From IMG/VR virus record IMGVR_UViG_3300020049_011574, positions 452 through 64,451 of that record: a DNA stretch of 64,000 bases; one strand, written 5' to 3'. The notes below the pieces were generated by a model that was not told the origin of the DNA, did not search any database, and saw only the letters and a program-made list of their open reading frames with translations. This DNA comes from a virus. Taxonomy: Duplodnaviria > Caudoviricetes. This document shows, piece by piece, positions 16,254-20,913 of the stretch. Positions within the stretch are counted from its first letter, which is position 1. The number at the start of each line of letters is the position of its first letter. The position numbers and the translations under genes were made by a program.

Positions 16254-16796
16254 ATGCCCAAATCAGATGGATATTTTAAACCTGGAATTTTACACCCAAA
16301 TTGGAAAGGTGGTGCAAAATTTACAAATTGCACTGACTGTAATTGTAAATTGATAGGTCGCAATTCAATACGTTGTAAGTCATGCGAAGGTAAGAATAGA
16401 ATTGGCAAAGGTGTAGGACCGACTTATCCTAAATGTTTAGATTGTAAAGTTGATCTCAAAGACCATCGGTCTAAGCGTTGTAGAAAATGTGCAAATACTG
16501 GCGCTCTAGCTCCAAATTGGAAAGGTGGTGTCACAAGTGAAAACAAACGTATTCGTCGGAGTAAGGAATTTCGCGTATGGAGAGAAAGTGTTTTTGAGCG
16601 AGATAATTATACGTGCCAGCATTGCGGTAAGCGTGGCGGTATTTTACATCCAGATCATATTAAACCATTTGCACTATTCCCAGAATTAAGGTTTGATATT
16701 GATAATGGGCAAACACTTTGCAAAGATTGTCATTTAAAAACACCTACGTATGGTGGTAAAATTTTAAAACTCACTAGGGCGGACTTCAAATGCTAA
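16254..16796 (+). CDS. HNH endonuclease with Zn-ribbon/NUMOD3-like repeats
   Basis: PNWKGG repeats; [11 protein letters not shown]...HPDHIKPF...[10 protein letters not shown]. Confidence 0.92.
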
Positions 16797-17514: not shown

Positions 17515-17720
17515 TTTATGATCACCGCCATTAGTCCCACTATGACCGCTGTAAGCATGAGCCCTACTAGACCATAAACCAAATTGCGTACTGGCTCGAA
17601 TTGATCCCTGGTTATATGATCTTTTTCGAGTTTGTTGTTAATTGACTTTACTTCTTCTTCAATAAATCCAACTCCTTGTTGGAGTAAAGCTAGCTTAGTA
17701 TCTATCGATTCTTGCTCCAC
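17511..17720 (-). CDS. Small coiled-coil plus C-terminal TM protein (lysis-accessory-like)
   Basis: 69 aa; FEPVRNLVYGLVGLMLTAVIVGL. Confidence 0.7.
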   Translation of the reverse strand: MEQESIDTKLALLQQGVGFIEEEVKSINNKLEKDHITRDQFEPVRNLVYGLVGLMLTAVIVGLMAVIIK

Positions 17721-17810
17721 TACAAAGCTCCAATGGTCAGCATTTTATAAAGGAAAAAGTTCATGCTGGCAAGTTTATACTATTTCTCCCGAAAAATGTG
17801 GCTAACTAAT

Positions 17811-18107
17811 TTATCCGACGAGAGAAACAATACCCCATATGACCAAACTTATAAGAGCAATCACTGTTGAAATCCCTAAAAGTGTGACCAGGAGTCCGAT
17901 ATAACCCCAAATTAAATTCATTGTTTCAAATTTGGTTGTCTCTTTACGAAACTCTATAGGCATGAGCTTTTGACGATGTTGCAGCATCTGTTGGTTGAAC
18001 TCTTGATTGTCTAAGAAGATAGCAGCATTCATATTGTCTACCATCTGTTGAGCTGTCGGTGCTTCTCCGATTATTTCTTCGAACTGTTCTTCTTCTTCTT
18101 CATTCAT
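17811..18107 (-). CDS. Hypothetical protein with C-terminal TM helix
   Basis: 98 aa; hydrophobic C-terminus. Confidence 0.65.
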   Translation of the reverse strand: MNEEEEEQFEEIIGEAPTAQQMVDNMNAAIFLDNQEFNQQMLQHRQKLMPIEFRKETTKFETMNLIWGYIGLLVTLLGISTVIALISLVIWGIVSLVG

Positions 18108-18168
18108 AAATTTATATTATCATATCGTTTTGATATTTCAAAAACATTTTACTCCGAGTGACGCATCC

Positions 18169-18197
18169 TTGCTTAATTATATTTTTAGTTGTACATT
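18169..18197 (+). promoter_or_regulatory. Promoter of the replication operon
   Basis: TTGCTT-17 bp-TACATT, with TG immediately upstream of the -10 box. Confidence 0.6.
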
Positions 18198-18225
18198 CTC
18201 TTAGACCCGTCCCTCGATAGGTTGT

Positions 18226-18292
18226 CCTCTAGTGCTGGTATTGCTTTAAGCCGTACTGCCAGCACTATGAGGTTCTTGTACGGCTTTAGCAA
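18226..18292 (+). ncRNA. Structured 5' leader with two interlaced helices (switch or pseudoknot)
   Basis: Helix A pairs 18226-18240 with 18257-18272; helix B pairs 18241-18256 with 18278-18292. AGGAG at 18294 and ATG at 18303 follow. Confidence 0.7.
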
Positions 18293-18302
18293 AAGGAGAA
18301 AA

Positions 18303-18731
18303 ATGAATATTAATAAACCCCAAAATCCAACAATAATTTATTTTGAAGACGTGACTTTCACGTATCTGATGAAAGATCCGTTTACGGGCTTTATTAAAAT
18401 TGGCAAAAGCAGAAGCCCTCGAGCTAGAGAAATAACTCTTCAGTCCCAAAATATTTCAACAACTTTAATGTATTATGCTTTTTCGGACATTTTTTTAGAA
18501 AAACAATTACATCAAGAATACAAAGAATTTAGAATCAGAGGTGAATGGTTCGACCTTAATGAAACTCAAGTTTCTGAACTCGTAAGGAAAATTTGGAGTT
18601 CCCATCCCCTCAACAATAAAGATATACCTCATCGAGTCGTTTACGGTATGGGTGTTGCTACGCCTGAACTATTCGAAGAATTTTATAAAGATAGATTTTT
18701 TACACCGATTGAAGAGGATATATGGGCTTAA
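18303..18731 (+). CDS. T5orf172/GIY-YIG-like domain protein
   Basis: TYLMKDPFTGFIKIGKS...RE..LQ...LEKQLHQEYKEFRIRGEWFDL. I prefer ATG 18303 over the track's TTG 18189. Confidence 0.85.
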   Translation: MNINKPQNPTIIYFEDVTFTYLMKDPFTGFIKIGKSRSPRAREITLQSQNISTTLMYYAFSDIFLEKQLHQEYKEFRIRGEWFDLNETQVSELVRKIWSSHPLNNKDIPHRVVYGMGVATPELFEEFYKDRFFTPIEEDIWA

Positions 18732-19597
18732 TAAAATATGTAGATAAAGAAGATGAATCTTGTTTTGCCCGCCTTCCCAATGATCTACTAAGGGACAAAA
18801 CCCTCTCTTGGACAGCAATAGGTCTATTGGCTCATATTCATTCTCATAAAGCAGGGTTTAATATCACCATTGAATCTTTAGCTCGCGCTAGTAAGTCTGG
18901 AGTAACAGCTACTCGTAGCGCCGTTAATGAACTGAGGAAAGCTGGATATTTACATTTCGCTGGCCGAGAGTTAGAAGCTGGAAAATACACCTCATCTATA
19001 TGGAATGTCTATTTAACACCAATTGAGCCAGATTGTTCTTATGTTGAAAATCCTACTAAGGAAATTCCTAGCGAGGAAAGAACTCACGTCAATAAAGAAG
19101 ACTATCCTAAGAAGACTAATAAAAGTATTAATGCAAAACAAAAGAAAGTCAAAGAAAGAAATCCTCTACTAGACGTTTTCGCCAATGAATGGTACCCCGA
19201 TGGAATTGTCCCTCCCCGTTTCTGGAGTAAAGCTGCAACTGCCCTATCTGAGATAAAGGAAGTTGAGCCGGATGTAACCCCAGAACGCCTTAGAGAGGAA
19301 ATTAAAGCTATTAGACCTCAATTTACAACCTCTGGCCCGCTAGCAATCTCAGGCCATTGGAGGGAGTACACGCAAAAAAAACTAAAGGCCAAAGAAGATC
19401 CATTAGAAATACGATATAAAGCTCTCTTCTCAGCCTTAATAGCATTCAAACAATCCGGCGGCGAAGGGCTCACAGTCCGCCAAAAAGAAATATGCGCCAA
19501 AATTACAGATTATTGCACGATGCGAGATTTGCAACTAGATAAAATCATGGTAGATAAAGAACAGCTTCTAGGCGTCTACAATGAAATTATCTCATAA
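18722..19597 (+). CDS. Replication initiator with N-terminal HTH
   Basis: FARLPNDLLRDKTLSWTAIGLL...AVNELRKAGYL pattern; directly upstream of dnaB. Confidence 0.8.
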   Translation: MGLIKYVDKEDESCFARLPNDLLRDKTLSWTAIGLLAHIHSHKAGFNITIESLARASKSGVTATRSAVNELRKAGYLHFAGRELEAGKYTSSIWNVYLTPIEPDCSYVENPTKEIPSEERTHVNKEDYPKKTNKSINAKQKKVKERNPLLDVFANEWYPDGIVPPRFWSKAATALSEIKEVEPDVTPERLREEIKAIRPQFTTSGPLAISGHWREYTQKKLKAKEDPLEIRYKALFSALIAFKQSGGEGLTVRQKEICAKITDYCTMRDLQLDKIMVDKEQLLGVYNEIIS

Positions 19598-20913
19598 TGG
19601 AACTACCCTACGACTTTAACGCAGAACAACAAACACTAGGTTGTATTATCTTGTCTACAAAGGCAGCAACAAAACTATTCTCCTCAGGAATACTCCAAGC
19701 AAAAGACTTCTACCTAGAAATGCACCAAGACATTTTCACTACTCTCAGCGAAATGTACCAAGCAAACCAGGCCATTGACGAAAAAACCCTAGAACACCAA
19801 TTGGCAATAGAAGGCATATTGCCCCACATCCAAGAAGAAAATTACATACGGGTATTACAAGCATCGCCAATATCCAGCACCTCAATACTTAGCTATGCAA
19901 AAATAGTCAAAGAATATTCACAACGCCGCAGAATAATAACCTTCGCAGACAACATATCAACCAAAGCGACAGCCGAAGAAGGAAACCTAGACCAACTCTT
20001 AGATGAACTATCCAACGAAACATTCGAAATATTAGCAACCAAAAAATCTAAAACCTTCTATTCAAAACAAGAAGCATTCGACCAAACATTCGAAGAAATC
20101 CTGGAAAACAAAAAAGAAGGCAAAGGAAATGGTTTAAGTTCTGGCATCGAAAGCCTCAACTTCTACATTAACGGCCTACAAAAAAACCGTATGTACGTTG
20201 TAGCAGCAAGGCCAGGAGTCGGAAAATCAATCCTAGGCGTAGAATTTATCCTTAGAGCAGCAGCACAAAGCCAATATCCAGCATTATTTTTCAGCCTAGA
20301 AATGGCAAGAGACCAAGTCGTAGGACGAATGCTAGCCAGATCCACAGGAATAGCAGTAGATAAAATACTCTCTGGAGATGTCAACGAAGAACAACTAACC
20401 AAATTGAAAGAAGCCGCAAAAACAATCGACGAGAATATCTACATTGAAGACAACAGTAATCTAACTACAGGAGACATCTACTCAATAGCCAGAAACACAT
20501 GCCTGGAACATGGTCAAATATCACTTATAGTCGTGGACTATATCCAATATATAAAATCAACAGGAATAGAATCAAGACAACAACAAATAAGTAATTTCTC
20601 CCGCGACCTCTCACATATGGCCAAACAGCTAGAAGTGCCAGTAGTAGTACTTTCTCAGCTCAATAGAAGCATAGATGGGCGGCTCGATAAACGACCACAA
20701 CTTTCAGACCTTAGAGACTCTGGAGCAATAGAACAAGATGCGCACAGCGTATTGATGATGTATTATCCTGACGAGGAAATTAAAGAAGAAGTAACACTTA
20801 TCGTGGCAAAAAATCGTTCAGGCGCTTGTGGCGAAGTTAACCTGCGACGCAATGGTAGCTTGTTTTCTTTCAAAGAAGCTGGCGTTTTATCTAAGCCTTC
20901 AGATGTTTTTTAA
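19597..20913 (+). CDS. dnaB: DnaB-like replicative helicase
   Basis: AEQQTLG, AARPGVGKS, FSLEM, VVDYIQ, LSQLNR and LRDSGAIEQDA motifs. Confidence 0.97.
   Translation: MELPYDFNAEQQTLGCIILSTKAATKLFSSGILQAKDFYLEMHQDIFTTLSEMYQANQAIDEKTLEHQLAIEGILPHIQEENYIRVLQASPISSTSILSYAKIVKEYSQRRRIITFADNISTKATAEEGNLDQLLDELSNETFEILATKKSKTFYSKQEAFDQTFEEILENKKEGKGNGLSSGIESLNFYINGLQKNRMYVVAARPGVGKSILGVEFILRAAAQSQYPALFFSLEMARDQVVGRMLARSTGIAVDKILSGDVNEEQLTKLKEAAKTIDENIYIEDNSNLTTGDIYSIARNTCLEHGQISLIVVDYIQYIKSTGIESRQQQISNFSRDLSHMAKQLEVPVVVLSQLNRSIDGRLDKRPQLSDLRDSGAIEQDAHSVLMMYYPDEEIKEEVTLIVAKNRSGACGEVNLRRNGSLFSFKEAGVLSKPSDVF

Follow-up and report, generated by a model that had tools for sequence, protein, structure and literature searches.

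The replication operon of the phage analyzed here is preceded by a leader which, judged by the pairings retained among its natural versions, is a real, evolutionarily kept structured RNA with two interlaced, covarying helices (A and B), and which most likely sets the amount of replication protein. The leader RNA represents a new family matching no catalogued one; by analogy, its presumed mode of action, i.e., control of a replication-gene leader by contact between a hairpin loop and the ribosome-binding site region, would be one already known from the IncI1/IncB plasmids. Only for a few plasmids and model phages is it understood in detail how RNA structure controls replication-gene expression. 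The present element is compact (~70 nt), backed by covariation and composed of two long interlaced helices with almost no spare residues, and its fold should therefore be strained or bistable. Its three natural cassette versions represent ready-made compensatory mutants, which makes for a cheap bench test.

Genomic setting of the leader

The stretch of DNA under study (64,000 nt, 39 % G+C; in the following termed the window) covers nearly all of an IMG/VR phage record of 64,451 bases. The leader is located in a 195-nt intergenic region between divergently oriented genes (leftward genes at 17811-18107, rightward genes from 18303 onwards). Coordinates of the leader and of the operon are compiled in Table 1.

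Table 1 Features of the leader region and the replication operon in the window
Feature	Position	Strand	Remarks
Putative promoter	18169..18197	+	-35 hexamer 18169-18174, 17-nt spacer, -10 hexamer 18192-18197; read from the sequence
P0, small 5'-terminal hairpin (4+3 pairs)	18204..18223	+	Minimum-energy fold
Helix A, 5' arm	18226..18240	+	Read from the sequence; perfect core found by repeat search
Loop of hairpin A = helix B, 5' strand	18241..18256	+	B2 18241-18245, B1 18248-18256
Helix A, 3' arm	18257..18272	+	Bulged T at 18268; read from the sequence, fold and covariation
Pyrimidine-rich linker (5 nt) joining A to helix B, 3' strand	18273..18277	+	4-5 nt in every cassette type
Helix B, 3' strand	18278..18292	+	B1 18278-18286, B2 18288-18292; stops 1-2 nt before the ribosome-binding site
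Shine-Dalgarno motif (AGGAG) and ATG	18294-18298 and 18303-18305	+	Translation start of the operon's first gene
T5orf172/MUG113-domain gene	18303..18731	+	Pfam and PHROGs
Replication initiator, N-terminal winged-helix/HTH domain	18722..19597	+	Pfam and PHROGs; 10-nt overlap with the upstream gene
DnaB-type replicative helicase	19597..20913	+	Pfam; overlaps the initiator gene

The putative promoter is omitted by the promoter consensus scan, because its -35 hexamer matches at only 3 of 6 positions. Both hexamers and their spacing are retained in a related locus (L015), in which the spacer and the upstream flank differ. Transcription from this promoter is predicted to start at about 18203-18204, which coincides with the beginning of the small hairpin P0.

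The gene coordinates agree with the arrangement described in the initial annotation, according to which the T5orf172 gene overlaps the initiator gene and the latter overlaps dnaB. The T5orf172 gene is inserted between leader and initiator gene in the window type and in a lineage sharing 88 % identity with it, but is missing from two related cassette types, in which the initiator gene follows the leader immediately. The T5orf172 gene looks like a mobile gene that captured the translation start of the initiator, handing ribosomes on via the 10-nt overlap.

Architecture of the leader RNA

Base-by-base reading of the sequence located both helices at exactly the coordinates that had been claimed for them, and an inverted-repeat search independently reported the perfect cores of A and B. 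Helix A consists of 15 pairs including one G.U pair (18239/18258) and is interrupted by a single bulged T. Helix B comprises the two segments B1 (9 bp) and B2 (5 bp), which are separated by a 2x1 internal loop, with the entire 16-nt loop of A taking part in this helix. The leader fold is thus made up of two hairpins and a loop-to-tail helix. P0, the first of these hairpins and missing from the initial annotation, is probably a 5'-end stabiliser.

The fold of the + strand leader yielded a z-score of -3.0 (minus strand, -2.2). The loop-to-target duplex has a potential of -19 to -23 kcal/mol, and a loop-to-downstream duplex of this quality was unequalled in 3000 shuffles for each of three cassette types. 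Neither the loop nor the target sequence recurs elsewhere in the window.

Scanning the whole window against Rfam at gathering score retrieved tRNA only, and scanning of 17700-18700 at E-values up to 10 produced chance-level matches only. The C4 model (P1 c4/P4 CI) did not match in either of these scans (window at gathering score, 17700-18700 at E-values up to 10), nor did the int-alpA model (RF02996) match anywhere in the whole phage record at E-values up to 10; the main text of Weinberg 2017 contains no mention of int-alpA. These scans are in line with the initial annotation, which had not recognised the consensus of the repZ/repA pseudoknots or of the P1 c4 and P4 CI RNAs in the leader.

Several other element classes were considered and rejected. 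Coding of the region from TTG 18189, the possibility of which had been raised together with the element, is contradicted by an in-frame TAA closing this frame inside the L015-type leader and by mostly non-synonymous changes: 4 of the 5 helix A changes between close lineages would be non-synonymous, and the peptides implied by the leader frame are unrelated among the versions. A leader peptide is likewise not apparent, as no start codon accompanied by a ribosome site is conserved, and the frames differ among the cassettes, one of them containing a stop. A terminator or attenuator was not found in the leader by the terminator scan, and in two cassette types the sequence following helix A contains few U residues; moreover, the 3' strand of B is transcribed only after A has been completed, which counts against an attenuator. 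A metabolite riboswitch was discarded, since it is pairing that the cassettes have in common, their few unpaired nucleotides differ in both number and letter, and no Rfam family matched.

Natural versions of the leader and cassette mosaic

Close relatives were found neither in IMG/VR by searches with the T5orf172, initiator or DnaB proteins nor among GenBank phages by blastn. When assembled metagenomes were queried for exact proteins, related contigs did emerge, the majority of them from samples of wastewater and sewage. Four of the runs containing the sequence are labelled RNA-Seq; their contigs are of low coverage, probably derive from DNA and give no indication of transcript starts or strands.

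Four distinct natural versions of the leader occur among the recovered loci: (i) the window type, identical in many contigs, (ii) the version of L002-L004, 88 % identical to the window over 4 kb, (iii) the version of L013, followed by an initiator with 55 % identity to that of the window, and (iv) the version of L015/L016/L019/L020, followed by an initiator with a different N-terminal half. The latter two versions are devoid of T5orf172.

Comparison of the loci by blastn revealed a mosaic. The sequence through P0 is common to the loci and is followed by a variable cassette (~18225 to ~19137) comprising helices A and B, the optional T5orf172 gene and the N-terminal winged-helix domain of the initiator; downstream of ~19137, the remainder of the initiator gene and the DnaB gene are common again. 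The related phages share 90-98 % identity up to P0 and again from mid-initiator onward. Within the cassette, the window leader is equally similar to leaders located before homologous and before non-homologous initiator N-terminal domains.

Searching viral, metagenome and genome collections for the exact element and for the conserved promoter block returned one contig only, which was already known. A degenerate pattern of the hairpin core produced 8 matches in GC-rich coding DNA of unrelated bacteria; these lack the promoter and ribosome-site context and were regarded as chance. In L027, the nearest of the more distant initiator relatives, which shares the N-terminal domain, the initiator gene lies within overlapping genes and has no leader. 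The leader family is known from one narrow clade of uncultured wastewater phages, where it is represented by three independent cassette types and, in addition, one close variant, and covariation statistics are thin for this reason.

Conservation and covariation

All four versions follow a common plan, in which P0 is succeeded by a spacer of 2-9 nt, helix A (13-15 bp with a loop of 15-17 nt), a pyrimidine-rich linker of 4-5 nt, B1 (9-12 bp) and B2 (4-5 bp). B1 and B2 are separated by a bulge restricted to the 3' strand (1, 4 or 10 nt), and the ribosome site begins 1-2 nt past helix B in every version. The offset of B to the ribosome site is fixed in all three cassette types, while the other spacers vary freely.

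Pairing was assessed with a covariance model built from the two close lineages and covering P0 and A only, to which the other cassettes aligned at 44-48 bits. The subsequent pair count included P0, A and B1 (the latter as a pseudoknot) and is based on a model-guided alignment fitted to helix A. Of the 152 cells, 96.7 % were paired, compared with 23-43 % when partners were slid by 1-3 columns. Double-sided changes were apparent in 8 pairs (5 in A, 3 in B1), as opposed to 0-1 in the slid versions, and neither the paired percentage nor the covariation score was reached by any of 500 shuffles. Across 5 distinct sequences, the 7 pairs of P0 are standard without exception, and two of them alternate among G.U, A-U and G-C. 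The 3' strand of B2 is out of register in the pair-count alignment, and B2 was therefore judged by hand; it covaries from U-A to C-G in one cassette and from U-A to G-C in another. The pair tables prepared by hand contain standard pairs throughout; besides Watson-Crick pairs these are exclusively G.U, as read on the + strand, which speaks for an RNA. The proposal of a structured + strand leader with two interlaced helices is upheld by these compensatory changes, since double changes in the homologous leaders affect both A and B.

Further insights are provided by comparison of the window with the 88 %-identical lineage, from which it differs by ten substitutions in 18198-18302. Five of them reside in helix A, comprising two double changes (18232/18265 and 18240/18257) and the conversion of G.U to A-U at 18258, and all five keep or improve the pairing. 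In P0, two changes turn G.U into A-U and G-C and one more is located in the loop. The loop of hairpin A (18241-18256) is unchanged. The same holds for the 70-nt run 18266-18335, which takes in the linker, the B 3' strand and the ribosome site and reaches codon 11 of T5orf172; the local rate would predict ~9 differences there. The coding start of T5orf172 may itself belong to the regulatory structure. The N-terminal domain of the initiator is 98 % identical between the two lineages, indicating that the changes in the helix do not track an altered DNA-binding specificity.

Folding energetics and proposed mode of action

According to a nested energy model, the free energy amounts to -22 to -30 kcal/mol for hairpin A alone and to -18 to -20 kcal/mol for hairpin B alone, and in each of the four versions the A fold is more stable than the best B-containing fold by ~10 kcal/mol. 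An equilibrium switch to the B hairpin is therefore unlikely without a trigger. When A or B was blocked in the same model, the unpaired probability of the ribosome site shifted only slightly and in no consistent direction. The two mutually exclusive states that had been envisaged to mask or expose the ribosome site are hence not supported, as accessibility hardly differs between the states and A is strongly favoured energetically. Weak pairing between linker and ribosome site is possible in two of the three cassette types and also appears in the window fold.

Doubts raised earlier about simultaneous formation of both helices appear justified on steric grounds: complete A and complete B should not coexist, because the linker measures 4-5 nt and the loop offers no unpaired residues flanking B. 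A and B share no nucleotides and thus do not compete by strand exchange; they would conflict only in space. A partial pseudoknot atop A, or intermolecular pairing, appears more natural than an equilibrium switch, and the observations are better accommodated by a partial pseudoknot under strain, or by a lock that is triggered or acts in trans, than by a switch masking and unmasking the ribosome site.

Based on these considerations, the region is proposed to serve as a ~100-nt 5' untranslated leader of the replication operon. Its RNA would fold into P0, the long hairpin A and helix B, in which the entire A loop would pair with the segment abutting the 5' edge of the ribosome-binding site. The RNA may adopt a strained partial pseudoknot or move between A-dominated and B-containing forms. 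Two partial folds would be feasible, namely full A combined with B2, the connecting strand then spanning 15-24 nt, or the upper 11 bp of A combined with B1, the lower 4 bp of A being opened at the conserved bulge/internal loop. The contact between loop and ribosome site would determine how fast translation of the first gene is initiated, and the overlapping stop and start codons would extend this control to the initiator and DnaB. The effect could be either activation, as in the IncI/IncB plasmids, or throttling. Selection has maintained the loop-target pairing, its placement at the 5' edge of the ribosome site and the shortness of the linker, which points to control of translation initiation. 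We regard it as probable, with moderate confidence, that the leader acts in this manner, i.e., that pairing of the A loop with the edge of the ribosome site sets translation initiation of the first gene and that the effect is passed on to initiator and DnaB.

In IncI1/IncB plasmids, a hairpin loop is connected by a pseudoknot with a short segment beside the ribosome site of the initiator gene. Like the leaders of IncI1 (ColIb-P9 repZ) and IncB (pMU720 repA), the phage element is the leader of a replication message, and the hallmark of these plasmid leaders, an upstream hairpin loop pairing directly 5' of the ribosome site, is found in the phage as well, where it covaries. The plasmid contact, however, involves few base pairs across ~100 nt, whereas the phage loop of 16-17 nt is complementary throughout (14-16 bp) and connected by a linker of 4-5 nt, rendering it topologically strained. 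Sequence or model similarity between the plasmid and phage leaders is lacking. The plasmid pseudoknot is reported to be indispensable for initiating translation of the initiator, and an antisense RNA to block it (PMC8053102). The plasmids need both a leader peptide and the antisense RNA, neither of which was found in the phage leader. On the minus strand, no antisense promoter was listed for 18270-18360 by a scan that may miss weak promoters, and a terminator is not apparent either, since no T run follows the hairpin. The search of the leader for promoter and terminator lends no support to an antisense RNA of the IncI/IncB type, which might have been anticipated from the plasmid analogy drawn in the initial annotation.

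Coexistence of conformers has precedents in the E. coli rpsO/S15 pseudoknot and the phage lambda cIII mRNA, both of which form two conformers whose balance sets translation. As may be the case in the phage leader, loop-to-downstream pairing beside the start site coexists there with a simple hairpin form. However, these systems possess protein effectors (S15 and RNase III, respectively) and short helices, while the helices of the phage leader are much longer.

Alternative explanations

Besides acting in cis on its own message, hairpin A could represent a cis-encoded antisense lock that also acts in trans, resembling the P1 c4/P4 CI RNA. The latter is encoded upstream within the same transcript; its loops can pair with a target in two parts close to where the next gene starts, and among its natural variants changes in the loop are matched by changes in the target. 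Correspondingly, the A loop would pair with the B1/B2 target on any copy of the message, including those of co-infecting relatives; hairpin A would act either within the leader or after processing, and the cassette-specific letters would define exclusion or incompatibility groups. The phage leader shares with c4 the layout of a loop facing a bipartite target and the matched loop/target variation: the two parts of the target are spaced variably by 1, 4 or 10 nt, reminiscent of the two sites of c4, and loop and target differ among the cassette types by compensatory changes. In addition, the duplex potential is strong (see above), and a contact in trans would, on steric grounds, escape the constraint imposed by the short linker. 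On the other hand, c4 is a processed, tRNA-like small RNA with a target covering the ribosome site, while no processing signal is evident in the phage leader and its target ends ahead of the ribosome site (B ends at 18292, the ribosome site starts at 18294, and the other cassettes have the same offset). The missing match to the Rfam C4 model and the lack of a second copy of loop or target in the window also speak against such a lock. The window loop is still able to pair with 7 of 9 B1 and 4 of 5 B2 positions of one other cassette, from which it follows that any specificity is partial, and neither an integrase nor a repressor was found among the genes scanned, i.e., there is no sign of an immunity lifestyle. 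Taken together, a trans-acting lock is considered unlikely.

A more far-reaching view would be that the leader is a topologically frustrated RNA lock with a programmable loop: as hairpin A and its target could not both be completed in a single molecule, it would be poised for intermolecular pairing, the cassette-specific letters of loop and target would confer phage-type-specific expression of the replication genes, and the leader would exemplify a broader, hitherto uncatalogued class of loop-to-start-site RNAs that guard such genes in phages. If true, this would imply RNA-based exclusion or incompatibility between co-infecting relatives. This view is speculative and rather unlikely to apply.

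Instead of controlling translation, the element could affect RNA stability, RNA processing or RNA polymerase. P0 and A might shield the 5' end, stacked A/B might form a site for a double-strand-specific nuclease, or the promoter-proximal hairpins might act on RNA polymerase in the manner of the HK022 put RNAs. 5' stem-loop stabilisers classically sit at the first base of a transcript. This is where P0 is predicted to start, and the hairpins directly follow the promoter of a long operon; furthermore, the accessibility of the ribosome site is not clearly state-dependent. Yet these functions leave unexplained why B maintains a constant distance of 1-2 nt to the ribosome site and why the translation-start region is frozen between close lineages, and no known family was matched. 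A role of this kind instead of translational control is therefore viewed as improbable.

A signal on the DNA level, with the interleaved inverted repeats acting as protein sites (operator or origin) or as a single-stranded DNA structure, e.g., a priming site, would be consistent with the location of the element within the variable cassette that also holds the DNA-binding N-terminal domain of the initiator, and with the common occurrence of inverted repeats near replication genes in origins, but is very improbable given that helix A acquired five pair-preserving changes alongside a 98 % identical N-terminal domain in the closest lineage, that the G.U wobbles of the + strand would be C.A mismatches on the other strand, that arms of 13-16 nt are far above typical half-sites, that the element fits exactly between -10 hexamer and ribosome site, and that the window leader resembles leaders before homologous and non-homologous N-terminal domains to the same degree.

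Further features of the region

The best database matches of the large terminase include many actinobacterial phages (~36 % identity).

A good match to a promoter (TTGAAA, 16-nt spacer, TAATAT, upstream TG) is present on the minus strand at 18114-18141. It faces the gene of an acidic protein of 98 amino acids (17811-18107) and is identical in all related contigs. Neither this gene nor the next two leftward genes matched a family in Pfam or PHROGs.

A 16-nt inverted repeat (18306-18321/18386-18401) starts directly after the start codon of the T5orf172/MUG113 gene, the product of which is homing-endonuclease-like according to one PHROG match. In the loci without T5orf172, the initiator gene starts at an unchanged distance from the leader (L013:1131, L015:4001).

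Origins of the lambda type lie at a mid-initiator-gene position. A perfect 10-nt direct repeat with two copies 14 nt apart is located in the initiator gene at 19095-19118, just before the mid-initiator boundary of the cassette. Since it is the sole 10-nt direct repeat pair there, and two copies are too few, iterons were rejected.

Upstream of the divergent region, the window lineage and L015 carry an HNH endonuclease gene (16254-16796), whereas gene calling yielded none at the corresponding position of the 88 %-identical lineage (L002/L003); this gene is probably another mobile insertion.
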